The notes below the pieces were generated by a model that did not search any database, was not told the DNA's origin, and worked only from the letters and a program-made list of their open reading frames with translations. Of a DNA stretch of 64,000 nucleotides, positions 1 through 13,559 are shown one piece after another. Numbering within the stretch: position 1 is the first letter of the stretch; each line of letters opens with the position of its first letter. The translations under genes were made by a program, and so were the position numbers. The DNA is from Escherichia coli (GTDB taxonomy: Bacteria; Pseudomonadota; Gammaproteobacteria; Enterobacterales; Enterobacteriaceae), in assembly GCF_013122565.1 (NCBI RefSeq), contig NZ_CP053258.1; one strand, written 5' to 3'.

Positions 1-473
1 TCAAATGCTGGGACAACGCCAAGTTTTCCGCTGTGATTGATGCCTTACATGCTCGTGGTTATGAAGTCGTTCTGACGTCCGGCCCAGATAAAGACGATCT
101 GGCCTGCGTCAATGAAATTGCGCAGGGATGCCAGACGCCACCAGTAACGGCCCTGGCTGGAAAGGTGACCTTCCCGGAACTTGGTGCGTTAATCGATCAT
201 GCGCAGCTGTTTATTGGCGTTGATTCCGCACCGGCGCATATTGCCGCTGCAGTTAATACGCCGCTGATATCGCTGTTTGGTGCGACAGACCATATTTTCT
301 GGCGTCCCTGGTCAAATAACATGATTCAATTCTGGGCGGGAGATTATCGGGAAATGCCAACGCGCGATCAGCGTGACCGAAATGAGATGTATCTTTCGGT
401 TATTCCGGCGGCAGATGTCATTGCTGCTGTCGATAAATTACTGCCCTCCTCCACGACAGGTACGTCGTTATGA
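1..473 (+). CDS. waaQ: LPS heptosyltransferase III, C-terminal part (5' end upstream of window)
   Basis: ORF in frame to window edge; GT9 heptosyltransferase C-terminal motifs (GVDSAPAHIAAA); stop overlaps next start; position ahead of waaG-waaP. Confidence 0.8.
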   Translation, partial: KCWDNAKFSAVIDALHARGYEVVLTSGPDKDDLACVNEIAQGCQTPPVTALAGKVTFPELGALIDHAQLFIGVDSAPAHIAAAVNTPLISLFGATDHIFWRPWSNNMIQFWAGDYREMPTRDQRDRNEMYLSVIPAADVIAAVDKLLPSSTTGTSL

Positions 474-1594
474 TCGTTGCTTTTTGTTTATATAAATATT
501 TTCCCTTTGGCGGTTTGCAGCGCGATTTTATGCGTATTGCTCAGACAGTCGCCGCCCGAGGTCATCATGTTCGGGTTTATACCCAGTCGTGGGAAGGCGA
601 ATGCCCTGATGTATTTGAACTGATCAAAGTGCCGGTTAAATCGCATACCAATCACGGGCGCAATGCGGAGTATTTTGCCTGGGTGCAAAAACATTTACGC
701 GAACATCCCGTCGATAAAGTCGTTGGATTCAACAAAATGCCGGGGCTGGACGTTTATTATGCCGCTGATGTTTGTTATGCCGAGAAAGTAGCGCAGGAAA
801 AAGGCTTTTTCTATCGCCTGACGTCACGTTATCGCCATTATGCCGCCTTTGAGCGGGCAACCTTCGAACAGGGCAAGCCGACACAGCTGCTGATGCTGAC
901 AGATAAGCAAATCGCCGATTTCCAGAAACATTATCAGACTGAAGCGGAGCGTTTTCATATTCTGCCACCGGGAATTTATCCTGATCGTAAATATAGCCAG
1001 CAGCCAGCTAATAGCCGTGAAATCTTCCGTAAGAAGAATGGAATAACCGAACAACAATATTTATTGTTGCAGGTCGGTTCAGACTTCACGCGTAAAGGTG
1101 TCGATCGTTCCATTGAAGCACTTGCTTCGTTACCGGATTCGCTGCGCCACAACACATTGCTATATGTTGTTGGGCAGGATAAACCGCGAAAATTTGAGGC
1201 GCTGGCAGAAAAACGCGGCGTGCGCAGTAATGTTCACTTCTTCTCGGGGCGCAACGATGTCTCGGAATTAATGGCGGCGGCGGATTTATTACTGCATCCT
1301 GCCTACCAGGAAGCTGCGGGAATTGTGCTGCTGGAAGCGATTACTGCAGGATTACCGGTACTAACAACTGCCGTTTGCGGCTATGCGCATTATATTGTCG
1401 ACGCCAATTGCGGCGAGGCTATTGCTGAGCCATTCCGCCAGGAAACATTGAATGAGATTTTACGCAAAGCGTTAACACAATCTTCATTGCGCCAGGCCTG
1501 GGCGGAAAATGCGCGACATTATGCTGATACACAAGATTTATACAGTCTGCCAGAGAAAGCGGCGGATATCATAACGGGTGGTCTGGATGGTTGA
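470..1594 (+). CDS. waaG: LPS core glucosyltransferase I (GT4)
   Basis: 374 aa ORF, sequence recognised as E. coli WaaG; start overlaps waaQ stop. Confidence 0.9.
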
Positions 1595-2384
1595 ACTTAA
1601 AGAGCCGTTTGCCACGTTATGGCGCGGAAAAGATCCTTTTGAGGAAGTTAAAACTTTGCAGGGTGAGGTATTTCGTGAACTGGAAACTCGCCGTACTCTG
1701 CGCTTTGAAATGGCGGGCAAAAGCTATTTTCTCAAATGGCATCGCGGCACGACCCTGAAAGAGATAATCAAAAATTTACTCTCATTGCGGATGCCAGTAT
1801 TAGGCGCAGACCGCGAATGGAATGCGATTCATCGACTGCGGGATGTCGGCGTTGATACTATGTATGGGGTGGCATTTGGCGAAAAAGGCATGAATCCGCT
1901 GACCAGAACTTCATTTATTATTACCGAAGATCTGACACCAACCATAAGTCTGGAAGATTACTGTGCTGACTGGGCGACCAACCCACCAGATGTTCGCGTA
2001 AAGCGTATGCTTATTAAGCGTGTCGCGACGATGGTGCGCGATATGCATGCTGCGGGCATTAACCACCGTGACTGTTATATCTGTCATTTCCTGTTGCACT
2101 TGCCTTTTTCCGGTAAGGAAGAGGAGTTAAAAATTTCGGTAATTGACCTGCACCGGGCGCAGCTTCGCACGCGCGTTCCACGTCGTTGGCGGGATAAAGA
2201 TTTGATTGGTTTATATTTCTCATCAATGAATATTGGTCTGACGCAGAGAGATATCTGGCGATTTATGAAGGTTTATTTTGGGATGCCTTTACGCGATATT
2301 TATAGACTTGAGATTGATTTACTTAAAAAGGCAAGGATTAAAGCAGGAAAAATAGAAGCAAGAACAATAAGAAAAAACTTGTAA
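1587..2384 (+). CDS. waaP: LPS core heptose(I) kinase
   Basis: ORF 1578-2384; likely start at second ATG ([12 protein letters not shown]...) overlapping waaG stop, giving 265 aa; kinase-like motifs. Confidence 0.88.
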
Positions 2385-2416
2385 ATAGTATTTTATTACA
2401 AAAAGGGATTCTAAAA

Positions 2417-3397
2417 TTGTTGAAATATAGAAACTTCGTTGCTAAGAAGAAAAATTTATACCAAAACGAAGTGTCGTATGTTAAAAATTTACATATTGCA
2501 CTATGCTTTGACCGTGAATTCATAATGCCAGCGGGTGTTGCATTATATTCAATTATATCCAACAATAGACATATTAACCTTCATTTTCACCTTCTTATAT
2601 CAGGCATAGAAGAAAAGGAGTGTTCAGCTTTTTACGAACTAGAAGGTCCTAATACATCAATATCTGTATATTATATAACTGATAAATTTGACATTAATCC
2701 GGATACATTAGTTCTTGGTATTCCTTTATCAACATGTTTACGTTTTTTAATCCCAGAAGTTATTGATGATAAAATAAATAAGATACTTTATCTTGACTGT
2801 GATGTCATATGTAATGGTCCTTTAGATGAACTGGTTGATTATAATTTAAATGCTGATATTGCATATGTAATTCCAGATTCGCCAGAAATGCAAGAACGTG
2901 TAAAAAAATTAGACTATGGCATTGAGTTTATTAATTATTTTAATGCCGGGGTTATGCTTATTAATACCAGCGAATGGAAAAAAAATAATATAACACAAAA
3001 AGCGTTAGAAAAGATCAACAGTGGAAAAGTATATAGGTATGCAGATCAGGATGTGCTCAATATTTTACTTAATGGACGAGTGCATTACCTTGATAAGAAG
3101 TACAATAATAAGACAACATTGTCAGTACGATGTGATGAAGAACAAAAAAACTTGCCCAACACAATTATAATGCATTATGTTACCCAGAATAAACCATGGT
3201 ACAAAATATTTAGAGCACAAAATTTTGATCATTATTTTTCAAATTCTCCTTGGAAGAACCATAAAAGAAATCTAGCTCCATCATCAAGTGAGATTAGGTT
3301 AAAGTCTAAAGTTTTTTGGCTAGAAGGAAAATATTGTAAAGCCATTTCTTATTATTATAAGTATTTACTTGTTAAATTATTTGGCTTAAAGATTTAG
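2417..3397 (+). CDS. LPS core glycosyltransferase, GT8-like, in the position occupied by waaS in K-12/R2 core loci
   Basis: 326 aa ORF; GT8 motifs shared with the downstream WaaO/WaaJ paralogs (YLDCDV...DXD, NAGVMLIN, DQDVLN, HY..KPW); AT-rich like the rest of the core operon. Confidence 0.6.
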   Translation: MLKYRNFVAKKKNLYQNEVSYVKNLHIALCFDREFIMPAGVALYSIISNNRHINLHFHLLISGIEEKECSAFYELEGPNTSISVYYITDKFDINPDTLVLGIPLSTCLRFLIPEVIDDKINKILYLDCDVICNGPLDELVDYNLNADIAYVIPDSPEMQERVKKLDYGIEFINYFNAGVMLINTSEWKKNNITQKALEKINSGKVYRYADQDVLNILLNGRVHYLDKKYNNKTTLSVRCDEEQKNLPNTIIMHYVTQNKPWYKIFRAQNFDHYFSNSPWKNHKRNLAPSSSEIRLKSKVFWLEGKYCKAISYYYKYLLVKLFGLKI

Positions 3398-3410
3398 CTG
3401 GAATGAAATT

Positions 3411-4490
3411 ATGAAAATAGCCTTTATTGGCGAAGCTGTTTCTGGATTTGGCGGCATGGAAACAGTCATTCGTGATGTTATTACTACCTTCAGGCAACAA
3501 CATATCCAAAGTGAAATTTTTTTCTTTTGTCGTAATGACAAAATGGATAAGGGATGGCTGGAGGGTATTAAGTACTCGTGTTCATTTTCCAATATTCGCT
3601 TAGGTTTTTTGCGTCGCGCGAAACATATTCATGCTTTAAGCAAATGGTTTCAGGATTATCAGCCAGATGTTGTTATTTGTATTGACATGATCTCGTGTTT
3701 GTATGCGGCCAAAGCTCGTAAAAAATCGGGGATTGATGTACCTGTATTTTCATGGCCGCATTTTTCTTTAGATCATAAAAAACATGCCGAATATATCACC
3801 TGTGCAGACTATCATTTAGCCATCAGCTCTGGTATTAAACAGCAAATGATTAGCCGGGGTGTGCCGGAATCGACAATAAACGTTATTTTTAATCCCGTCG
3901 AGGCGAAAAATTCAGTCATTCCTGCACCCGGGGAAGGCGAAACGGCAACATTCATTTATGTTGGGCGCATGAAATTTGAAGGCCAAAAGCGCGTAAAAGA
4001 TCTGCTTGATGGCTTATCACAAGTGCAAGGTGACTGGAAACTTCATGTATTGGGAGATGGCTCCGATTTCGAAAAATGCCAGGCTTATGGTAGAGAATTA
4101 AATATTGATGATCGAATTGTCTGGTATGGTTGGCAACAACATCCCTGGAAATTAGTTCAGCAAGATATTAAAAAAGTGAGTGCATTATTACTCACGTCAT
4201 CTTTTGAAGGTTTCCCAATGACTCTACTTGAAGCCTTGTCGTGGGGGATCCCTTGTATCAGTGCAGATTGCGTCTCCGGGCCTGCTGATATCATTCAGCC
4301 TGATGTTAATGGTCATTTATATCAACCGGGAGATATTGCTGGTTTTGTAACTCTTCTAAATAAATATATAGCAGGTGAAATTCATATCGAACATGAAAAA
4401 ATTCCTGCGTCGATCGATAAGTTTTATCAATTAAAGTATTACGATAGATTACATAATATAATTATTTCTGCTATTTCCCGGAGGAAATAA
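3411..4490 (+). CDS. waaB: LPS core alpha-1,6-galactosyltransferase (GT4)
   Basis: 359 aa ORF, N-terminus MKIAFIGEAVSGFGGMETV recognised as WaaB; GT4 C-terminal EGFP motif. Confidence 0.85.
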   Translation: MKIAFIGEAVSGFGGMETVIRDVITTFRQQHIQSEIFFFCRNDKMDKGWLEGIKYSCSFSNIRLGFLRRAKHIHALSKWFQDYQPDVVICIDMISCLYAAKARKKSGIDVPVFSWPHFSLDHKKHAEYITCADYHLAISSGIKQQMISRGVPESTINVIFNPVEAKNSVIPAPGEGETATFIYVGRMKFEGQKRVKDLLDGLSQVQGDWKLHVLGDGSDFEKCQAYGRELNIDDRIVWYGWQQHPWKLVQQDIKKVSALLLTSSFEGFPMTLLEALSWGIPCISADCVSGPADIIQPDVNGHLYQPGDIAGFVTLLNKYIAGEIHIEHEKIPASIDKFYQLKYYDRLHNIIISAISRRK

Positions 4491-5509
4491 TGCAGCAGGT
4501 ATTATTCCAGGAAACTGAGTTTCTAAATACAGTTATTGATTATAATCATAAAGTAGAAACGGAAAATCCTTGTCTGGACATCGCGTATGGAACTGACAAA
4601 AACTTTCTATTTGGTTGCGGAATTTCGATTGCTTCAATATTAAAGTATAATGAAGGAAGTCGGTTGTGTTTCCACATTTTTACTGATTATTTTGGTGATG
4701 ATGATCGTAAGTATTTTGATGCCCTAGCGTTACAGTATAAAACCAGAATTAAAATATATCTGATTAATGGTGACCGACTACGCTCATTGCCTAGCACAAA
4801 GAACTGGACTCATGCAATATATTTTCGTTTTGTTATTGCAGATTACTTTATTAATAAGGCGGCTAAAGTCCTTTATCTGGATGCAGATATCATTTGTCAG
4901 GGGACTATTGAGCCACTAATTAAATTCTCATTTCCTGACGATAAAGTCGCAATGGTTGTTTCTGAAGGGCAAGCTGACTGGTGGGAAAAACGCGCCCATT
5001 CGTTAGGTGTTGCGGGAATTGCTAAAGGTTACTTTAACTCCGGTTTTTTATTGATTAATACTGCCAAATGGGCGGCTCAGCAGGTTTCTGCACGAGCCAT
5101 TGCAATGCTAAATGAGCCAGAAATAATCAAAAAAATAACACATCCTGATCAGGATGTATTAAATATGTTGCTGGCAGATAAACTTATTTTCGCTGATATT
5201 AAATATAACACCCAGTTTAGCTTAAATTATCAACTAAAAGATAACTTTATAAACCCAATTACCAACGATACTATTTTTATCCATTATATCGGGCCAACCA
5301 AGCCCTGGCATGATTGGGCCTGGGATTATCCTGTATCACAAGTATTTATGGAGGCAAAAAATGTTTCGCCATGGAAGAATACGGCGTTGCTGAAACCGAA
5401 CAATAGCAATCAATTAAGATATAGCGCTAAACATATGCTTAAAAAACATAGATATCTAAAAGGGTTTAGCAACTATCTTTTTTATTTTATTGAAAAGATA
5501 AAGCATTAA
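4490..5509 (+). CDS. waaO: LPS core alpha-1,3-glucosyltransferase (GT8)
   Basis: 339 aa ORF, GT8 motifs, length and position match K-12 WaaO (RfaI). Confidence 0.8.
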   Translation: MQQVLFQETEFLNTVIDYNHKVETENPCLDIAYGTDKNFLFGCGISIASILKYNEGSRLCFHIFTDYFGDDDRKYFDALALQYKTRIKIYLINGDRLRSLPSTKNWTHAIYFRFVIADYFINKAAKVLYLDADIICQGTIEPLIKFSFPDDKVAMVVSEGQADWWEKRAHSLGVAGIAKGYFNSGFLLINTAKWAAQQVSARAIAMLNEPEIIKKITHPDQDVLNMLLADKLIFADIKYNTQFSLNYQLKDNFINPITNDTIFIHYIGPTKPWHDWAWDYPVSQVFMEAKNVSPWKNTALLKPNNSNQLRYSAKHMLKKHRYLKGFSNYLFYFIEKIKH

Positions 5510-5548: not shown

Positions 5549-6565
5549 GTGGACTCATTTCCTGCCATAGAGATAGATAAAGTTAAAGCCTGGGATTTTC
5601 GGCTGGCTAATATAAATACTTGTGAATGTTTAAATGTTGCCTATGGTGTCGATGCTAATTATCTTGATGGTGTAGGTGTTTCCATCACATCAATTGTCCT
5701 AAATAATCGACATATTAGTCTTGATTTTTATATTATTGCTGATGTTTATAATGATGCTTTTTTTCAAAAAGTTGCAAAGCTTGCAGAGCAATACCAATTA
5801 AGAATCACGTTATATAGAATTAACACTGATAAGCTCCAGTGCTTGCCTTGTACACAGGTCTGGTCAAGAGCAATGTACTTCCGTTTATTTGCATTTCAAT
5901 TATTGGGTTTAACTCTTGATCGTTTGCTTTATCTTGATGCAGATGTTGTTTGTAAAGGCGATATTAGCCAACTATTGCATCTGGATTTAAACGGAGCGGT
6001 TGCTGCTGTTGTTAAAGATGTTGACCCAATGCAGGAAAAGGCGGCATCTAGGTTGTCTGATCCTGAATTAGTTGGGCAGTACTTTAATTCCGGTGTCGTT
6101 TATTTAGATTTAAAAAAATGGGCTAACGCAAAACTAACCGAAAAAGCGTTGTCTATTCTTATGAGTAAAGATAATTTTTATAAATACCCTGATCAGGATG
6201 TTATGAATGTCTTACTGAAAGGAATGACAATATTTTTGCCTCGTGAGTATAATACAATTTATACAATTAAAAGTGAATTAAAGGACAAAACACATCAAAA
6301 CTATAAAAAGCTGATTACAGAAAATACTCTTCTTATTCATTATACAGGTGCAACTAAACCGTGGCACAAATGGGCAATTTATCCATCGGTAAAATACTAC
6401 AAAATAGCTTTAGACAATTCCCCCTGGAAAGATGACTCTCCACGAGATGCGAAATCAATTATTGAATTCAAAAAAAGATATAAACATCTTTTAGTGCAAC
6501 ATCACTATATCTCAGGAATTATAGCAGGAGTCTGTTATCTTTGCCGAAAATATTACCGTAAATAA
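5549..6565 (+). CDS. waaJ: LPS core alpha-1,2-glucosyltransferase (GT8)
   Basis: 338 aa ORF, GT8 motifs, length and position match K-12 WaaJ (WaaR/RfaJ). Confidence 0.8.
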   Translation: MDSFPAIEIDKVKAWDFRLANINTCECLNVAYGVDANYLDGVGVSITSIVLNNRHISLDFYIIADVYNDAFFQKVAKLAEQYQLRITLYRINTDKLQCLPCTQVWSRAMYFRLFAFQLLGLTLDRLLYLDADVVCKGDISQLLHLDLNGAVAAVVKDVDPMQEKAASRLSDPELVGQYFNSGVVYLDLKKWANAKLTEKALSILMSKDNFYKYPDQDVMNVLLKGMTIFLPREYNTIYTIKSELKDKTHQNYKKLITENTLLIHYTGATKPWHKWAIYPSVKYYKIALDNSPWKDDSPRDAKSIIEFKKRYKHLLVQHHYISGIIAGVCYLCRKYYRK

Positions 6566-6582
6566 CATTTAACTGGTTTATT

Positions 6583-7281
6583 ATGATTCAGAAGAGCAAG
6601 ATCAAAGACTTGGTTGTTTTTACCGATGAAAAGAATTCAAAGTACCTCAATGTATTAAATGACTTCTTGTCTTATAATATAAATATCATCAAGGTTTTTC
6701 GTTCTATTGATGATACAAAAGTTATGCTTATTGATACCGATTACGGTAAATTGATTCTTAAGGTTTTTTCTCCGAAAGTTAAGCGTAACGAACGTTTCTT
6801 TAAGTCTCTGTTAAAAGGTGATTATTACGAACGCCTTTTTGTGCAAACTCAAAAAGTACGAAATGAAGGGTTAAATACACTCAATGATTTTTATTTATTG
6901 GCTGAACGGAAAACCTTACGATTTGTCCATACTTATATCATGATCATCGAGTATATTGATGGCATAGAGTTATGTGATATGCTCGATATTGATGATTCGC
7001 TAAAAAATAAAATTCAACAATCAATTAATGCCTTGCATCAACATGGCATGGTTTCTGGCGACCCTCATCGTGGTAATTTCATTATAAAAAATGGTGAGGT
7101 CCGAATTATTGATCTCTCTGGAAAACGTGCTTCAGCGCAGCGTAAAGCGAAAGATCGTATTGACTTAGAGCGTCATTATGGTATTAAAAATGAGATTAAA
7201 GATGTAGGCTATTATCTTTTAGTATATCGTAAAAAAATGCGCAATTTTATGCGGCGTTTGAAAGGGAAACCAGCGCGCTAA
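6583..7281 (+). CDS. waaY: LPS core heptose(II) kinase
   Basis: 232 aa ORF, kinase-like HRGN motif, position. Confidence 0.8.
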   Translation: MIQKSKIKDLVVFTDEKNSKYLNVLNDFLSYNINIIKVFRSIDDTKVMLIDTDYGKLILKVFSPKVKRNERFFKSLLKGDYYERLFVQTQKVRNEGLNTLNDFYLLAERKTLRFVHTYIMIIEYIDGIELCDMLDIDDSLKNKIQQSINALHQHGMVSGDPHRGNFIIKNGEVRIIDLSGKRASAQRKAKDRIDLERHYGIKNEIKDVGYYLLVYRKKMRNFMRRLKGKPAR

Positions 7282-7349: not shown

Positions 7350-8201
7350 ATGAAGAATATTAGATATATTGACAAAAAAGATGTTGAAAACCTGATTGAA
7401 AATAAAACATCTGATGATGTTATTATTTTTCTTTCTGGCCCTACATCGCAAAAAACACCTTTGTCAGTATTACGTAAAAAGGATATTATTGCTGTCAATG
7501 GTTCTGCGCAATATCTGTTAAGTCATAATATCGTTCCTTTTATATATATAGTTACAGATGTCCGCTTTTTACATCAGCGTCGTGATGATTTTTATAAATT
7601 TAGCCAGAGAAGTCGTTATACCATAGTAAACGTCGACGTTTATGAACACGCTTCCAAAGAAGATAAACTTTATGTCCTCCAGAACTGCCTCGTATTACGG
7701 TCCTTTTATCGCCGAGAAAAAGGCGGTTTGATAAAGAAGATAAAATTTAATATATTAAGTCAGATTCATAAAGAACTGCTGATCTCTGTACCGTTCTCTA
7801 AAAAAGGTCGTCTGGTCGGATTTTGCAAGGACATTAGTCTTGGTTATTGCTCATGCCATACTATTGCCTTTGCTGCAATTCAAATAGCATATACACTTAA
7901 GTATGCGCGGATTATTTGTTCTGGTCTTGATTTAACTGGTAGTTGTTCTCGTTTCTATGACGAAAATAATAATCCCATGCCCTCGGAATTGAGTAAGGAT
8001 TTATTCAAAATCTTGCCATTTTTCCGTTTTATGCGTGATAATGTTGAAGATATTAATATCTATAATTTATCAGATGATACCGCAATTTCTTACGATGTAA
8101 TTCCATTTATTAAATTTCAAGATATCAGTAGAGAAGAATCAAAAGATAAGACAAGAAAAAAAATGCAATATAGAACTTCAACTGATTCTTATGCTAATTA
8201 A
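7350..8201 (+). CDS. waaZ: LPS core biosynthesis protein WaaZ
   Basis: 283 aa ORF, length and position as in K-12 type core locus. Confidence 0.75.
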   Translation: MKNIRYIDKKDVENLIENKTSDDVIIFLSGPTSQKTPLSVLRKKDIIAVNGSAQYLLSHNIVPFIYIVTDVRFLHQRRDDFYKFSQRSRYTIVNVDVYEHASKEDKLYVLQNCLVLRSFYRREKGGLIKKIKFNILSQIHKELLISVPFSKKGRLVGFCKDISLGYCSCHTIAFAAIQIAYTLKYARIICSGLDLTGSCSRFYDENNNPMPSELSKDLFKILPFFRFMRDNVEDINIYNLSDDTAISYDVIPFIKFQDISREESKDKTRKKMQYRTSTDSYAN

Positions 8202-8233: not shown

Positions 8234-9307
8234 ATGCGTTTAGGAACTTTTCACAAAAAGAAAAGATTTTATATAAACAAAATCAAAATTAATTTCCTTT
8301 CTTTTTTATTTCGTAAGAAAATAAATAATCAAATTACAGAACCAGCGCAAGTTAATTCATGTCTTATTATTCATGATAATAATAAGCTCGGTGATCTAAT
8401 TGTATTAAGTTCGATTTATCGTGAACTTTATAGTAGAGGGGTTAAAATAACCATTCTTACAAATAGAAAGGGTGGGGAGTTTCTCTCTAACAATAAAAAT
8501 ATATTTGAGTTCTGTATTAAAGAATCAACTGGTTTTCTTAAAATGCTTACTCTATGTAAGCATCTGCAGGATTTACAGTTCGATATTGTATTAGACCCCT
8601 TTGAAACTATGCCCTCATTTAAGCATAGCTTAATATTATCAAGTTTAAAAGATTCTTACATTCTGGGTTTTGATCATTGGTATAAGCGTTACTATTCATT
8701 TTACCATCCTCACGATGAATGTTTAAAAGAACATATGAGTACACGAGCAATAGAAATACTGAAGCATATTTATGGTGAGGGTAAATTTTCCACCGACTAC
8801 GACTTGCATTTACCAGTAGATGTTGAAGATAAAATAATAGAATTTATTGGAGATACAAGAATAGTCATTATTAATCCATTAGGTGCAAAAAAAATATGCC
8901 GTCTTACGTTTGAGCAAATAAAAGTTATATATCAAGAAGTGAAAACACACTTTGAAAATTATCGGATTATATTTACCGGGTTACCGCAAGATTTATTGAC
9001 AATACCAATACTTGAAATCGAAACACTACCATTTGATGAGTTTATTTATACCGTTGCGTTGACCAAGTATAGTGATTTTGTCATTTCTGTTGATACAGCT
9101 CTTGTTCATATCGCTGCGGCTTATCATAAACCAACGCTTGCATTTTACCCTAATTCACGTACTCCGGAATATCCCTCGCATTTAATTTGGTCCCCGAATC
9201 ATCATAAATCTATACAAATAGTATCCCCAACATATACGGTAAAAGATATCGATACTGAAACTTTAACTAATTCAGTAAAGAGATTAAGTTGTATAGATAA
9301 GAAGTGA
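8234..9307 (+). CDS. waaU: LPS core heptosyltransferase IV-like (GT9)
   Basis: 357 aa ORF with GT9 heptosyltransferase-like C-terminus (VDTALVHIAAA); last gene of operon, convergent with waaL. Confidence 0.75.
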   Translation: MRLGTFHKKKRFYINKIKINFLSFLFRKKINNQITEPAQVNSCLIIHDNNKLGDLIVLSSIYRELYSRGVKITILTNRKGGEFLSNNKNIFEFCIKESTGFLKMLTLCKHLQDLQFDIVLDPFETMPSFKHSLILSSLKDSYILGFDHWYKRYYSFYHPHDECLKEHMSTRAIEILKHIYGEGKFSTDYDLHLPVDVEDKIIEFIGDTRIVIINPLGAKKICRLTFEQIKVIYQEVKTHFENYRIIFTGLPQDLLTIPILEIETLPFDEFIYTVALTKYSDFVISVDTALVHIAAAYHKPTLAFYPNSRTPEYPSHLIWSPNHHKSIQIVSPTYTVKDIDTETLTNSVKRLSCIDKK

Positions 9308-9338: not shown

Positions 9339-10598
9339 TTAATTAATTGTATTGTTACGATTATTAATAACGAGTAAGAGCACTATAGCGGATATAATAA
9401 TAATTGGAATGCTGCGTGCCCATATGATCACATCACTGAGTCCAATCCCCACAATGCCAAGCGTTAATATCAACAAACCCAAAGCTCGTTTTTTATATGC
9501 TATATAAAATAGTGAAAAATAGAGGAAAAGTGTGGAAAAAATTCCCATCAGACCTTTCAGTGACCCTGCTTCAATTATCTCATTATGTAGATGTACGTTA
9601 GAAAACTCCAATGCCCCTCTTAGCCTGTTGTGTTCTGCAACTAACAAATTCATACTTTCAGCGCGCGACTCTGCAGATCTAAATGAAAAAGGTGACTTTT
9701 TGAATATATCCAAACCAATTTCGTACATTGCCAGCCTTGCACCTAAGGAAGTCACGCTATTAGCATTTGTATAACTGTTTAAATCATTTAATGCTTCATT
9801 ATAGCGATTCTGTATTGGTTTATTAAATATAATTACAATACTCGCCAATATAGCAATTAGAAGAAAAATAGCGGAAGTAATTTTCTTAGGTGATTTATTA
9901 TAATAAGCTATTAATGTAACAGCACAAATTCCAGGAAACAGGAGTAGTGTTGCTCTGGTTTGTGTTAGTGCCAGAACATAAAGTACCGCGCAACTATTTA
10001 ATAAAAATAAAAAAGGATGGTTTTTCTTAGTATAAAGAATCGCAACACCACTAACTATCCCTATTAGCATTGTTGAATATGCCGCTCCTGTTGCCGTTCC
10101 TACACCAAAAGAAATACGATCATATTCATGAATACTATTAATATACATTGCATATCCAGCAATTATAAATGACAGAGAATATAAAATGTATAATATACTC
10201 TCTTTTTTATTTTTTAGCTGGCTAGTTAGTGCTAAAAAAACAATAAAAGAACCAAATATAAATATTTTGGCAGTATTTAAATAACTATGGTAAGTAGCAC
10301 GATATGGCGAGTTATCTACTTTAAATACAGAATACCAAATTAAATCAAGAAACCCTATAAAAAATATAGAAAGGGGCAGAATAATATTTTTTATATTGTA
10401 ATTTATTTGTCTGCCACGTAAAATTAGTGCTAATAAGCAAGTTATAGCAGTGATGTTATACATCTTTATGCTGAAATTGTTATCGACGAATGCAATTATT
10501 AATGAAAAAAAACATAATATATAAGTTATTATCTCTAAAATCATAGATGATTGCAGAGTGTAAGGTTTCCATGAATGAAGTTTAATGAAGGTTGGCAT
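9339..10598 (-). CDS. waaL: O-antigen ligase
   Basis: 419 aa polytopic membrane protein, recognised as K-12-like WaaL. Confidence 0.85.
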   Translation of the reverse strand: MPTFIKLHSWKPYTLQSSMILEIITYILCFFSLIIAFVDNNFSIKMYNITAITCLLALILRGRQINYNIKNIILPLSIFFIGFLDLIWYSVFKVDNSPYRATYHSYLNTAKIFIFGSFIVFLALTSQLKNKKESILYILYSLSFIIAGYAMYINSIHEYDRISFGVGTATGAAYSTMLIGIVSGVAILYTKKNHPFLFLLNSCAVLYVLALTQTRATLLLFPGICAVTLIAYYNKSPKKITSAIFLLIAILASIVIIFNKPIQNRYNEALNDLNSYTNANSVTSLGARLAMYEIGLDIFKKSPFSFRSAESRAESMNLLVAEHNRLRGALEFSNVHLHNEIIEAGSLKGLMGIFSTLFLYFSLFYIAYKKRALGLLILTLGIVGIGLSDVIIWARSIPIIIISAIVLLLVINNRNNTIN

Positions 10599-10607
10599 GT
10601 TTTACCT

Positions 10608-11567
10608 TTATAATGATGATAACTTTTCCAAAACTGTTTGACCGTTGAGATTATTTAAACTTTTCCCCGGAGCCCTACAAACCATCTGATTCTTCCCATA
10701 CCCACCAATTAATCCCGGATCGGTTGGTCCATAAACCGTGATATTCGGTCTATCCAGTGCCGCCGTTAAATGGCTTAACCCCGTATCCACCGACACTACA
10801 AATTTAGCCCCGGCCAGCACGCGGGCAACGCCTTCCAGACTCATCTTCGGCAATACTTCAACATAAGCAAATCCTTCCGCCAGTCGTTTCGCCCGTTCTT
10901 CCTCATGCGGCGCGCCCCACGGAAGTTTAATCCGTATTCCTGAATCAGCCAGTAAACCAATCAATTCTCGCCAGTGTTCTTCCGGCCAGTGTTTATCATC
11001 ACGGGTCGTCGCATGAAGAAATACGGCATATTCGCCAGCATCTGTAGGCAGGTTCGTCAGGAAATGCTGTGCAATAGCATAATCGCCCTGGGTTTGCGGT
11101 TTGCTATAGCCCAAACTTTTGGCAAACAGTTCGCGGGTGCGTTCTACGGCGTGCTGCTGTTTTGCAATATGATGTTTACGATTGTAAAACAGGCTGGCTA
11201 AAGGTTCGCGAGCGGTTTGCCAGTCCATTCCATGCTTTACGCCATGCGCCAGACGCGTCACCAGCGCCGCGCTTTTTACCAGCCCCTGAGCATCGATAAC
11301 TGCGTCATAGTTCTCTGCTTGTAGCGCTTCACGAAACGCTTTGCGTTCCGCTTTTATGGGGGCCGAGAACCAGGCTTTACGCCAGCGACGTATTGCCACA
11401 GGAATAACTCGCTCAACGGCGGCGTGCCAGGAAGGAATTTGTGCGAACCCTTCTTCCACCACCCAGTCAAACTTAATCCCTGGGATTGCCTGCTGGGCAT
11501 CAGTGAGTGAGGGCAACGTATGGAGAACATCGCCCATCGACGATGTTTTAACGATCAAAACCCGCAT
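10608..11567 (-). CDS. waaC: LPS heptosyltransferase I
   Basis: 319 aa ORF, N-terminus MRVLIVKTSSMGDVLHTLP recognised. Confidence 0.92.
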   Translation of the reverse strand: MRVLIVKTSSMGDVLHTLPSLTDAQQAIPGIKFDWVVEEGFAQIPSWHAAVERVIPVAIRRWRKAWFSAPIKAERKAFREALQAENYDAVIDAQGLVKSAALVTRLAHGVKHGMDWQTAREPLASLFYNRKHHIAKQQHAVERTRELFAKSLGYSKPQTQGDYAIAQHFLTNLPTDAGEYAVFLHATTRDDKHWPEEHWRELIGLLADSGIRIKLPWGAPHEEERAKRLAEGFAYVEVLPKMSLEGVARVLAGAKFVVSVDTGLSHLTAALDRPNITVYGPTDPGLIGGYGKNQMVCRAPGKSLNNLNGQTVLEKLSSL

Positions 11568-11570
11568 CCG

Positions 11571-12617
11571 TCAGGCTTCCTCTTGTAACAATAGCTCGTT
11601 GAGTTCTTCCAGTACGCGCTGGGGAGTAATGTCGATCAAGCTCTGGTGATAACCCTCCGCAGCGTCACCTTTACGCACTTTGTGATAGCCGGTAATCAGA
11701 CGGATCACGCGTGCTTTATGGGATAGCGGCGGTGTGAAGTCCGGGCTACTCGGACCATACAGGGCAACCAGCGGACGATTGAGCGCCGCCGCAACGTGCA
11801 TCAGGCCAGAATCGTTAGTGACAATGGCTTTACAGGCTGCAATCAGGATAACCGCTTGATCAAGCTGTGTTTCCCCCGCCAGGTTCCGACACCATGCCTG
11901 CTGCTCGGTATTCAAAGCGGCAAGAATCTCATTGCCCGCTTCATGATCTTTCGCCGAGCCAAACAGAACCACCTGATAACCTTCATCAATCAGCTGCTTT
12001 GCCAGCTCCGCATAGTGGTAGTGTGGCCAGCGTTTTGCCGGACCAAACTCTGCACCCGGGCAAAAACCAATCATCGGACGTTCTGATGAAAGCGAAAATT
12101 GATTACAGGTATATGATTTTTCACCTTCGCTCACCTGCAACTGCGGCCATAACAATGGCTGCGGCAGATCTTGTGCGGTACGCATAATGCCTTTGTCATA
12201 GGCCAGCGCGACATAGCGTTCCACCATTAGCGGCCAGGCTTCTTTATCGAGCACACGTACATCGTTGAGTAAACCGTAGCGCATCTCGCCGCGCCAGCCG
12301 GTGCGATGAGGAATACCCGCGAAGAAAGGCACTAATGCAGATTTGAAGGAGTTGGGTAAGACGTAGGCGCGGTCGTAGCGCTTTTCACGCAGGCTATGAC
12401 CCAGTTTGCGGCGTTCGCCGATTTCCAGCGCTCCGTGACCGAGAGGCATAGGGATAGCTTCGTTAACTTCCGGCATCCGCGATAATAATGGACGGCACCA
12501 TGCAGGTGCCATCACGTCGATTATCGCCTGGGGATAGCGCGCCTGGAGCGTGCGATAGAGACTTTGCGACATCATCATGTCGCCAACCCAAGACGGGCCG
12601 ATCACCAGTATTTTCAT
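11571..12617 (-). CDS. waaF: LPS heptosyltransferase II
   Basis: 348 aa ORF, N-terminus MKILVIGPSWVGDMMMSQ recognised. Confidence 0.92.
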   Translation of the reverse strand: MKILVIGPSWVGDMMMSQSLYRTLQARYPQAIIDVMAPAWCRPLLSRMPEVNEAIPMPLGHGALEIGERRKLGHSLREKRYDRAYVLPNSFKSALVPFFAGIPHRTGWRGEMRYGLLNDVRVLDKEAWPLMVERYVALAYDKGIMRTAQDLPQPLLWPQLQVSEGEKSYTCNQFSLSSERPMIGFCPGAEFGPAKRWPHYHYAELAKQLIDEGYQVVLFGSAKDHEAGNEILAALNTEQQAWCRNLAGETQLDQAVILIAACKAIVTNDSGLMHVAAALNRPLVALYGPSSPDFTPPLSHKARVIRLITGYHKVRKGDAAEGYHQSLIDITPQRVLEELNELLLQEEA

Positions 12618-12626
12618 GCAGAGCTC

Positions 12627-13559
12627 TTATGCGTCGCGATTCAGCCAGGCCATATATTCCGTTACACCTTCGGCAACGGTTTTGAACGGTTTGTCGTAAC
12701 CCGCCGCGCGCAGATTTGTCAGATCTGCCTGAGTGAACGCCTGGTAGCGGCCTTTCAGCTTATCCGGGAACGGAATGTATTCGATCTGGCCTTTCTTGTG
12801 ATAAGCCAGCGTTGCATCGGCTACTGCCTGGAAGGATTCTGCACGACCGGTGCCGAGGTTGAAGATACCGGAAACGCCATTTTCCAGGAACCACAGGTTG
12901 ACGTCTGCCACGTCGCCTACGTAAACGAAATCGCGTTTGAAGTTTTCGCTACCTTCGAACAGCTTCGGTGATTCACCGTTGTTAAGCTGGGTGTTGAGAT
13001 GGAAAGCGACGCTCGCCATGCTGCCTTTATGGCCTTCACGCGGCCCATAGACGTTGAAGTAGCGGAAGCCAACAATCTGTGAATTTGCTTCCGGCAGGAT
13101 TTGACGAACATATTCATCAAACAGGAATTTTGAGTAACCGTAGACGTTCAACGGTTTTTCGTACTCGCGGGATTCAATAAAGTCGGAGGTGCGTCCGCCG
13201 TAAGTGGCTGCGGAAGAGGCGTACAGGAACGGGATTTCACGCTCCAGGCAGTAGTGCAGCAGCTCCTTGGAGTATTGATAGTTGTTATCCATCATATACT
13301 TGCCGTCCCACTCGGTGGTGGAAGAGCACGCGCCTTCGTGGAAAATCGCTTCGACATCGCCGAACTCTTCGCCAGCCATAATCTGGATCAGGAAGTCTTC
13401 CTTATCCATATAGTCCGCGATATCCAGATCCACCAGGTTCACAAACTTGGTGCCGTCTTTCAGGTTGTCCACCACCAGAATATCGGTGATGCCTTTATCA
13501 TTCAGGGCTTTAACGATGTTGCTGCCGATAAAGCCCGCGCCGCCGGTAACGATGATCAT
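12627..13559 (-). CDS. hldD: ADP-L-glycero-D-manno-heptose 6-epimerase
   Basis: 310 aa [23 protein letters not shown]ossmann N-terminus; head of hldD-waaFCL operon. Confidence 0.93.

Follow-up and report, generated by a model that had tools for sequence, protein, structure and literature searches.

The LPS core type sets which O-antigens are ligated, shapes recognition by phages and antibodies, and serves strain typing. In the K-12 core type, which is defined by waaU and a K-12-type waaL, the slot between waaP and waaB holds waaS, whose product we take to be the K-12 rhamnosyltransferase. K-12 rhamnose is added to inner-core Kdo residues (PMC8745692). The R2 core type is defined by waaK and an R2-type waaL, and the gene in the same slot received the name wabA in a recent core-typing paper (Trofimova et al., Microb Genom 2025; PMC13293308). 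That paper also reported an "R2/K-12 hybrid" waa locus in one strain, GF4-3 (GCA_013122565.1), among 4,549 genomes and read it as an R2 locus in which waaK had been exchanged for waaU (PMC13293308). In the part of its supplementary table that compares GF4-3 with R2, the figures, read as identity fractions, were 0.99 for wabA, 0.97 for waaB, 0.85 for waaO, and 0.71 for waaQ (PMC13293308), and the per-gene identities to R2 in our window (the whole stretch of 64,000 nucleotides of E. coli DNA analyzed here) followed the same order as these figures. Since both the gene and the hybrid layout were already published in 2025, our finding is real and not new, and its value lies in a clean annotation and a sharper hypothesis, with galactose as the donor sugar and KdoII as the acceptor.

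Identity of the gene between waaP and waaB

An open reading frame scan of the window returned an uninterrupted forward-strand frame of 326 amino acids at this slot (Table 1), opening with a TTG start codon that is preceded, 8 nt on its 5′ side, by an AGGGA Shine-Dalgarno-like motif; the 981-nt coding sequence annotated by RefSeq in other strains is the same frame. The gene matched the R2-slot gene annotated as "GT8 family protein" at 99.7% nucleotide identity over the full 981 nt in 483 complete E. coli genomes, including M217, and its product was equal in length and 99.1% identical to WP_000922462.1 of the R2 strain M217. Altogether, wabA was found in 502 of 5,426 complete E. coli genomes (~9%). 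On the strength of these matches, the 326-residue gene is wabA, the usual occupant of the slot between waaP and waaB in R2-type core loci, instead of the variant glycosyltransferase that an earlier note on this DNA had envisaged. The exact WabA, WaaU, and WaaL proteins of the window correspond to the database entries QJU26359.1, QJU26365.1, and QJU26366.1, respectively. The gaps separating wabA from its neighbors were 32 nt on the waaP side and 13 nt on the waaB side. A scan for promoters and terminators around wabA yielded nothing over background, with no terminator-like site and no surplus of promoter-like sites, and an Rfam scan of the whole window gave no match. A tblastn search with WabA revealed no close phage-borne homologue in a phage database. 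A 61% match returned from that database was a chromosomal contig of Salmonella Infantis. In a full-text literature search, wabA occurred only in the LPSTyper paper of 2025 and in the corresponding preprint, and no WabA experiment was present in the searchable literature.

The GT8 membership of the protein was evident from its match to Pfam PF01501 (Glyco_transf_8; E, 3.7e-49; 168 bits against a cut-off of 24.3), which covered profile positions 1 to 251 of 253, and to PF08437 (Glyco_transf_8C, GT8C; 27.3 bits against a cut-off of 23). Identity was 28% to WaaO (E, 7e-35) and 31% to WaaJ/R (E, 3e-38) of the window, in agreement with the earlier note, which had called the protein a third GT8 paralog beside these two. 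The key residues of WabA comprised the DxD motif (D127-C-D129), N176-A177-G178, D210-Q211-D212, H253, and K259-P260-W261. R109, D127, D129, N176, G178, D210, Q211, D212, H253, and KPW were invariant in 83 relatives, and the catalytic residues aligned with R86, D103, D105, N153, D188, Q189, and D190 of Neisseria LgtC (1GA8/1G9R), the closest relative in the PDB, a distant match (E, 8e-17) confined to residues 35 to 263. Judged from these profile matches and motifs, the GT8 fold assignment is unambiguous. The dN/dS ratio in the WabA family ranged from 0.09 to 0.15, which indicates that the family is under purifying selection; because of this ratio and the invariance of the catalytic residues in the 83 relatives, WabA appears to be functional as a family.

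Comparison with WaaT and WaaW, which the earlier note had proposed, indicated that WabA is neither of these, nor any other outer-core GT8 enzyme. Orthology to WaaT or WaaW was ruled out by identities of 25 to 32% and by a neighbor-joining tree that placed WabA in a separate clade. This comparison left out the R3 gene in the waaD position, whose annotation names a GlcNAc transferase instead of a GT8 enzyme. WabA also fell below the cut-off of the outer-core equivalog model NCBIfam PRK15171 (180.6 bits against 461).

The slot is indeed the waaS position, as the earlier note had stated, with the gene lying between waaP and waaB. This position and the near length of the two proteins (326 versus 311 aa) could be taken to mean that the gene is a divergent K-12 waaS, in which case the locus would be an ordinary K-12 core locus. 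However, K-12 WaaS (NP_418086.1) showed no significant BLASTP similarity to WabA (best E, 0.34), so that the near-identity considered in the earlier note does not hold, and the two belong to different families: the NCBIfam model NF053598 (WaaS/CpsH) matched K-12 WaaS with 179 bits and did not match WabA, and WaaS matched no GT8 model. No counterpart of K-12 waaS DNA was found in the window either, and we dismiss this reading outright. The distribution of the two genes points to alternation, since the 1,031 genomes with waaS and the 502 with wabA add up to 1,533, exactly the number of genomes carrying a waaY of the K-12/R2 class; waaS and wabA thus appear to be alternatives.

Architecture of the waa locus

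The gene order and the origin of each part of the locus are given in Table 1. The lengths quoted in the earlier note for the genes that follow wabA (359, 339, 338, 232, 283, 357, and 419 aa) agreed with the open reading frame list, and the last forward-strand gene was GT9-like by Pfam, as that note had it. Its description of the locus as otherwise K-12-type was borne out from waaO onward, where waaO-R-Y-Z-U and waaL showed 94 to 98% nucleotide identity to K-12; it did not extend to waaB and the 3′ end of waaP, which were R2-type, or to waaQGP, whose allele was distinct from those of both K-12 and R2. The waaQGP allele class of the window was present at 95 to 99% identity in 4,469 genomes.

Table 1. 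Features of the waa locus in the window. The start of waaP was set by analogy with the 798-nt RefSeq rfaP coding sequence.
Feature	Position	Strand	Evidence
waaQ, 3′ part (heptosyltransferase III), truncated by the window start	1..473	+	ORF; 99.3% to WEC rfaQ, ~72% to K-12 and R2 (M217)
waaG (glucosyltransferase I), 374 aa, common E. coli allele	470..1594	+	99.1% to WEC, 79-80% to K-12 and R2 M217
waaP (HepI kinase), upstream junction inside, near 2180	1587..2384	+	ORF end at 2384
R2-derived recombinant segment (waaP 3′ end, wabA, first ~920 nt of waaB), as judged from sequence	2180..4333	+	Mismatch counts
wabA, GT8 glycosyltransferase	2417..3397	+	Pfam GT8 and GT8C; R2 gene match, 99.7% nt
waaB (alpha-1,6-galactosyltransferase), R2-like save the last ~160 nt	3411..4490	+	NCBIfam PRK09922, 599.9 bits; 97.0% R2 vs 91.3% K-12
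waaO (GT8, HexII transferase), K-12-like	4490..5509	+	NCBIfam PRK15171, 574.7 bits; 96.4% K-12, 85.0% R2
waaJ = waaR (GT8, HexIII transferase), K-12-like	5549..6565	+	Pfam GT8 and GT8C; 97.2% K-12, 87.7% R2
waaY (HepII kinase), K-12-like	6583..7281	+	Pfam WaaY, E 1.7e-131; 97.3% K-12, 86.4% R2
waaZ (KdoIII transferase), K-12-like	7350..8201	+	NCBIfam WaaZ, 544.5 bits; 94.6% K-12
waaU (GT9, putative heptosyltransferase IV), K-12-type marker	8234..9307	+	Pfam GT9; 98.0% K-12; none in R2 locus
waaL (O-antigen ligase), K-12-type	9339..10598	-	Pfam Wzy_C; 93.6% K-12; no R2 ligase match
waaC, waaF, hldD (inner-core heptose genes)	10608..13559	-	ORFs of 319, 348, 310 aa; 96-99% K-12

The segment of approximately 2180 to 4333 differed from the canonical R2 locus of M217 at 14 positions in 2,154 nt (99.35% identity), compared with ~122 mismatches (94.3%) to WEC, which is otherwise the closest backbone, and this pattern of likeness reversed on both flanks. 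On the 5′ side of ~2180, every 40 nt held 0 to 2 mismatches to WEC versus 5 to 13 to R2, and on its 3′ side there were none to R2; the second junction lay near 4334, within waaB. As traced by these mismatch counts, the locus is a three-part mosaic of a common waaQGP, an R2-type segment of 2.15 kb, and a K-12-type waaO-waaL block, in which the R2-type segment is embedded between the other two parts by homologous recombination. With regard to core type, the window carried the waaU and K-12-type waaL of the K-12 definition and no waaS between waaP and waaB, together with the wabA of the R2 definition in this slot and neither waaK nor an R2-type waaL. The M217 locus, by comparison, held both R2 markers, waaK and the R2 rfaL, with wabA between rfaP and waaB, and gave no match to waaU or waaL of the window.

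Each junction was located inside a conserved gene, where mis-joins can arise, and a faulty assembly that fused sequence of an R2 strain to that of a K-12-type strain would produce such a hybrid. However, seven independent genomes of the complete E. coli set (5,426 genomes) had the same order of wabA, waaU, and a K-12-type waaL, their sources being humans, pigs, chickens, frogs, and sewage, and a Citrobacter genome had it as well. The flanks also matched the WEC-type hybrid backbone at ~99%, and all reading frames were intact across both junctions, leaving the chance of an artifact negligible. In two of these seven, WEC and YZLc4-1, wabA appears to be disrupted, by a 1-nt insertion that was confirmed in WEC and, in YZLc4-1, as judged from an annotation split in the same way, which suggests that loss of wabA is tolerated; three other hybrid genomes retained an intact wabA of 326 aa.

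In Salmonella and Citrobacter, the WabA orthologues were likewise encoded between waaP and waaB. Many Salmonella carry wabA, in the order waaP-wabA-waaB-I-J-Y-Z-K-L, and the order in Citrobacter was waaP-wabA-waaB-GT8-GT8-waaY-waaZ-GT9-waaL, with every outer-core protein 53 to 69% identical to its counterpart in the window. The window portrays the waa locus as built of exchangeable modules, namely, waaQGP, the waaS-or-wabA slot with waaB, and a distal waaU-or-waaK with its ligase. Typing by distal genes alone, whether by PCR or in silico, would call this strain K-12 and overlook its R2 accessory transferase.

Predicted activity of WabA

Only three alignment columns separated the known galactosyltransferases (WaaI of R3 and Salmonella, WaaT, and WaaW) from the glucosyltransferases (WaaO and WaaJ/R), few independent lineages being represented. 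At two of these columns, the whole WabA clade carried the galactose-type residues, T106 and A177; at the third, WabA had Ala, neither the galactose-type Leu nor the glucose-type Pro/Met. LgtC (T83, A154), which is labeled a galactosyltransferase in the PDB, and WbbM, presumably also a galactosyltransferase, carried the same T and A and had not been used in finding the columns, and the uncharacterized GT8 protein 3tzt displayed the glucose-type pair, M and S. These residues suggest that the donor of WabA is most probably UDP-galactose. They also fit a published suggestion that WabA adds alpha-1,7-galactose to KdoII: Table S13 of the core-typing paper, under the name waaS, lists the slot as "possibly" involved in alpha-1,7-Gal on KdoII (PMC13293308). 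The acceptor of the putative galactose transfer is thus most probably KdoII, in the inner and not the outer core. A search of open papers for Kdo-linked galactose in R2 LPS found none, and the studies in those papers used core released by mild acid. Mild-acid release of the core loses side-chain Kdo.

An outer-core role for WabA, along the lines of the earlier note, would mean that the enzyme attaches one more alpha-hexose as a branch of the K-12-type outer core and creates a new outer-core structure; such a role appears unlikely. It is true that WabA shares its family and C-terminal GT8C domain with WaaO, I, J, R, T, and W and that wabA sits among outer-core genes. However, WabA forms a clade apart from the HexII and HexIII transferases, at the low identities reported above, and WaaG, B, O, R, and K suffice to account for the R2 outer core as published. 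The sole published suggestion for the slot is an inner-core KdoII galactose (PMC13293308, Table S13), and wabA alternates one for one with waaS in genomes, the rhamnose of K-12 being placed on inner-core Kdo (PMC8745692).

The three differences between the window copy of wabA and the common R2 allele, C150Y, F181L, and M199K, were all non-synonymous, with no synonymous change beside them. Position 150 was occupied by A, G, or C in all 82 aligned relatives, Tyr being private to the window allele, and lies on the beta-strand that precedes the conserved D154. Because C150Y places Tyr where the relatives have A, G, or C, this copy might be impaired; an impaired or decaying copy, through C150Y and possibly M199K, would leave a plain K-12-type core with neither rhamnose nor galactose on Kdo. 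Such an outcome would be in keeping with the lack of synonymous differences, with the unique Y150 on the strand before an invariant Asp, with the record of the exact window protein from a single contig, and with the apparently disrupted wabA of the related hybrids WEC and YZLc4-1. We nevertheless consider impairment improbable. The frame is intact with every catalytic residue present, K199 occurs in 5 of 83 relatives and is therefore tolerated, position 181 has the ancestral Leu, relaxed selection cannot be inferred from as few as three substitutions, and three other hybrids keep wabA intact.

Considered as a whole, our observations are best explained, with high confidence, by a wabA gene in a mosaic R2/K-12 waa locus; the product of the gene is predicted to galactosylate KdoII. 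WabA would be produced from the long waaQ operon transcript and would reside on the inner membrane, facing the cytoplasm, where the basic and aromatic GT8C tail at its C terminus would anchor it. Retaining GT8 enzymes make alpha linkages (CAZy family GT8). As a retaining, metal- and DxD-dependent transferase, WabA is predicted to transfer an alpha-linked hexose from a UDP-sugar to the nascent lipid A-core, most probably from UDP-galactose to the side-chain KdoII, yielding a non-stoichiometric alpha-1,7-Gal. It may therefore be seen as the positional and functional counterpart, in inner-core decoration, of the unrelated K-12 rhamnosyltransferase WaaS. The LPS core of this strain is predicted to combine a K-12-type outer core, which bears a HepIV cap and is recognized by a K-12-type ligase, with an R2-style Kdo decoration that replaces the K-12 rhamnose.

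A bolder proposal, which we advance only tentatively, joins this activity to the history of the locus. WabA would be a UDP-Gal:KdoII alpha-1,7-galactosyltransferase, and the layout of wabA, waaU, and a K-12-type waaL would be old and possibly ancestral in enterobacteria, as the uniform divergence in Citrobacter might suggest, and not a recent chimera; the canonical K-12 locus would then be derived through replacement of wabA by waaS. If this were true, the strain would bear a structurally undescribed core glycoform, with a HepIV-capped K-12 outer core and galactose instead of rhamnose on Kdo, and phage and antibody recognition could change. The T/A versus I,M/S pair would also serve as a general predictor of galactose versus glucose donors for GT8 enzymes of LPS synthesis.

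Comparison with described systems

The GT8 enzymes of the outer core (WaaO/WaaI and WaaJ/WaaR/WaaT/WaaW) have the Pfam families GT8 and GT8C, the catalytic motifs, and the approximate length in common with WabA, yet they are just 25 to 32% identical to it, and WabA constitutes its own clade. LgtC, a retaining alpha-1,4-galactosyltransferase, aligns with WabA in the DxD motif, R86, N153, D188, Q189, and the His/KPW region; in contrast to WabA, it lacks a GT8C tail of the enterobacterial kind, and it takes the lactose of lipooligosaccharide as its acceptor. K-12 WaaS has the same operon position as WabA and alternates with it across genomes, whereas the two are unrelated in sequence and family and differ in their sugars, rhamnose in K-12 versus a UDP-hexose, probably galactose, predicted for WabA. 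If the suggestion of galactose on KdoII holds, both would decorate the Kdo region as accessory enzymes.

The wabA gene of the R2 strain M217 shares with that of the window the slot between waaP and waaB and the flanking intergenic sequences, and its partners are waaK and the R2 waaL, whereas waaU and a K-12-type waaL accompany the window gene. The latter combination, wabA with waaU and a K-12-like waaL, is that of the GF4-3 hybrid as well, and the window probably derives from this very strain; the seven hybrid genomes reported above are additional to it. The two accounts differ in how the hybrid came about: the GF4-3 paper describes an R2 locus with a single gene swap (PMC13293308), whereas our mismatch profile points to a separate R2-type insert of 2.15 kb in a backbone that was already hybrid.

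Identity of the 326-aa GT8 gene

The gene between waaP and waaB, wabA, is an uninterrupted open reading frame of 326 codons lying in DNA of 30-32% G+C, with a TTG start codon and an AGGGA motif 8 nt upstream, and RefSeq annotates the same 981-nt coding sequence in other strains. Its product matched Pfam Glyco_transf_8 (E 3.7e-49) and Glyco_transf_8C, and was a distant paralog of the GT8 enzymes encoded downstream in the operon (WaaO, 28% identity; WaaJ/R, 31%), supporting the earlier note's description of a third GT8 paralog. That note had also left open whether the protein was WaaS; a comparison with K-12 WaaS, which we take to be the enzyme adding the K-12 Kdo rhamnose, revealed no similarity (best E 0.34), WaaS belonging to the unrelated WaaS/CpsH family. 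The gene lengths it quoted and the GT9-like character it assigned to the last gene were correct. Its proposal of a variant glycosyltransferase, however, was contradicted by a full-length DNA match of 99.7% identity to the "glycosyltransferase family 8 protein" gene, the R2 wabA, of 483 complete E. coli genomes. At 90% identity or above, wabA was present in 502 of 5,426 complete E. coli genomes, each with one chromosomal copy, and in the canonical R2 strain M217 its counterpart is flanked by rfaP and waaB, and the locus carries the R2 markers (the GlcNAc transferase gene waaK and the R2 ligase). Judged by sequence, the gene is almost certainly the known R2 gene wabA, and it is not a new transferase. 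Exact protein records exist for WabA (QJU26359.1), WaaU (QJU26365.1), and WaaL (QJU26366.1) of the window.

A mosaic waa locus and its published counterpart

Gene-by-gene comparison with MG1655 (K-12), M217 (R2), and another R2/K-12 hybrid, WEC, demonstrated that the waa locus is a three-part mosaic.

Positions of the features discussed and, for waa genes of the window, identity to three reference loci
Feature	Position	MG1655 (K-12)	M217 (R2)	WEC (hybrid)
waaQ, waaG, waaP	window 1-2180 (waaP runs on to 2384)	72-80%	72-83%	98-99%
Junction inside waaP	window, near 2180			
wabA	window 2417-3397 (+)	absent	99.7%	94.4%
WabA T106	window 2732			
WabA A177	window 2945			
waaB		91.3%	97.0%	95.1%
Junction inside waaB	window, near 4334			
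waaO, waaR, waaY, waaZ		94.6-97.3%	85-88%	96-99.8%
waaU		98.0%	no counterpart	99.1%
waaL		93.6%	no counterpart	97.5%
1,299-aa ORF	window 29302-33201 (-)			
WEC wabA (94% allele)	L003:4818-5799			
Citrobacter sp. T1.2D-1 waa locus	GCA_950098555.1, L007:5974-17294			
Hafnia paralvei WabA homologue	CP014031.2, L009:9001-9969			
Salmonella enterica serovar Infantis wabA orthologue	AFYI01000003.1, 333705-334679			

The reading of the locus as otherwise K-12-type held for the distal genes and failed for waaB, which is largely R2-type, and for waaQGP. Mismatch profiles placed the two junctions; between them the window shared 99.35% identity with canonical R2 but 94.3% with WEC, whereas beyond them WEC was the closer match (~99%, against 78-82% for R2). 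This switch in identity at both junctions indicates a 2.15-kb R2-type segment inside a backbone already of the wabA plus waaU layout, a backbone type with its own 94% wabA allele. Homologous recombination probably brought the segment in, but transfer in the opposite direction is possible. The waaQ, waaG, and waaP genes of E. coli fall into strongly diverged allele classes, among which MG1655 rather than the window (72-83% identical to MG1655 and M217) is the outlier; the waaQGP allele of the window is that of most E. coli (95-99% identity in 4,469 genomes).

A 2025 in-silico core-typing paper, which uses the name wabA for the R2 slot gene, reported one "R2/K-12 hybrid" among 4,549 genomes, strain GF4-3 (GCA_013122565.1), with wabA present, waaU replacing waaK, and a K-12-like waaL (PMC13293308). 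A per-gene comparison in that paper gives fractions for GF4-3 against an R2 strain (wabA, 0.99; waaB, 0.97; waaO, 0.85; waaQ, 0.71; PMC13293308), and the window ranks its genes against R2 in the same order. The hybrid layout had already been published in 2025, very likely from the same strain as the window. Our analysis adds the recombination junctions, the recurrence of the layout, the exact waaS/wabA complementarity, a galactose-donor prediction from discriminating residues, and the unusual C150Y substitution.

Elsewhere in the window, matching genomes carry a YadA-like family annotation at the 1,299-aa ORF. Among complete E. coli genomes, the best matches to the 22 kb following the waa locus stopped at ~96% identity and 88% coverage, so the source strain or the adhesin region is fairly divergent.

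Distribution of wabA and of the hybrid layout

The whole 9-kb locus was covered in 7 of 5,426 complete genomes (WEC, YZLc4-1, 6EVA, ET201, LHM10-1, CP52E, and N3), with an intact 326-aa wabA in 6EVA, ET201, LHM10-1, and N3. In WEC, whose waaL has no CDS annotation, one extra nucleotide inserted behind gene position 196 leaves wabA annotated as two fragments, and the YZLc4-1 gene is annotated with the same split; at least some strains can therefore do without wabA. Across the complete E. coli collection, genomes with waaS (1,031) and wabA (502) add up exactly to the 1,533 genomes with a K-12/R2-class waaY, which fits a slot always filled by one or the other.

Outside E. coli, the layout recurred in Citrobacter sp. 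T1.2D-1, whose gene order (waaQ-G-P-wabA-waaB-GT8-GT8-waaY-waaZ-GT9, waaL on the opposite strand) is that of the window, ending in a GT9 gene and a 423-aa ligase. Its outer-core proteins are all 53-69% identical to those of the window (WaaU, 60.7%; WaaL, 58.9%), and this even divergence in one Citrobacter genome hints that the "hybrid" layout may be ancient and not a newly formed chimera. In Salmonella, subsp. salamae and a cluster of 4,127 members among them, the order is waaP-wabA-waaB-I-J-Y-Z-K-L. The full-length Infantis orthologue (61% identical) came from a collection of phage sequences but is not a phage hit, the record being a 515-kb bacterial WGS contig. The Hafnia paralvei homologue (43.8% and 46% identical in two comparisons) lies within a P2-like prophage, flanked on one side by a DinI/S24-peptidase region and on the other by genes for tail-fibre assembly and the tail fibre, a classic lysogenic-conversion gene position. 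This suggests that LPS-modifying enzymes of the WabA clade can be mobile.

Predicted function of WabA

A literature search found no experimental work on WabA. Within E. coli and within Salmonella, dN/dS was 0.15, and ~0.1 between the genera, where dS is saturated; wabA is under purifying selection. Among 83 relatives (42-98% identity), R109, D127, D129, D154, N176, G178, D210, Q211, D212, H253, and K259-P260-W261 were essentially invariant, and the active-site residues of LgtC, a Neisseria retaining alpha-1,4-galactosyltransferase, align with these conserved residues. Three nucleotide differences, all non-synonymous, set the window allele apart from the common R2 allele: L181 is ancestral, K199 is shared by 5 of the 83 relatives, and Y150 is private, the position being A, G, or C in 82 of 82 aligned relatives and A, G, C, or M in every other LPS GT8 examined. 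Residue 150 is in the strand ahead of the invariant D154, and Y150 might reduce activity.

The earlier suggestion of an altered outer core, with WabA as an outer-core transferase, was not supported and is the less likely reading: WabA shares 25-32% identity with the transferases for HexII (WaaO/I) and HexIII (WaaJ/R/T/W), forms a clade distinct from both, and scores far under the WaaO/I equivalog cut-off. When characterised Gal-transferases (WaaI of R3 and Salmonella, WaaT, WaaW) were set against Glc-transferases (WaaO, WaaJ/R), just three alignment columns separated them cleanly, and the whole WabA clade was Gal-type at two, T106 and A177 (Glc-type: I/M and S). LgtC, taken as a galactosyltransferase from its PDB label, and the GT8 domain of Klebsiella WbbM, presumably also a galactosyltransferase, both lay outside the column search and carry T and A, whereas the uncharacterised GT8 3tzt has the opposite pair, M and S. 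These residues are moderate evidence that the donor is UDP-Gal. In LgtC, the matching T83 lies three residues before R86 and A154 adjoins N153; across GT8 enzymes these positions covary, with T+A in Gal- and I/M+S in Glc-transferases, and the pair may be a simple donor-specificity predictor for LPS GT8 enzymes.

A retaining GT8 enzyme using UDP-Gal is expected to yield alpha-linked galactose. Because of this, the Gal-type residues, and the alternation with waaS, we tentatively propose, at slightly worse than even chances, that WabA would be a cytoplasmic, membrane-peripheral alpha-galactosyltransferase decorating KdoII non-stoichiometrically. In K-12, rhamnose is added onto Kdo residues (PMC8745692).
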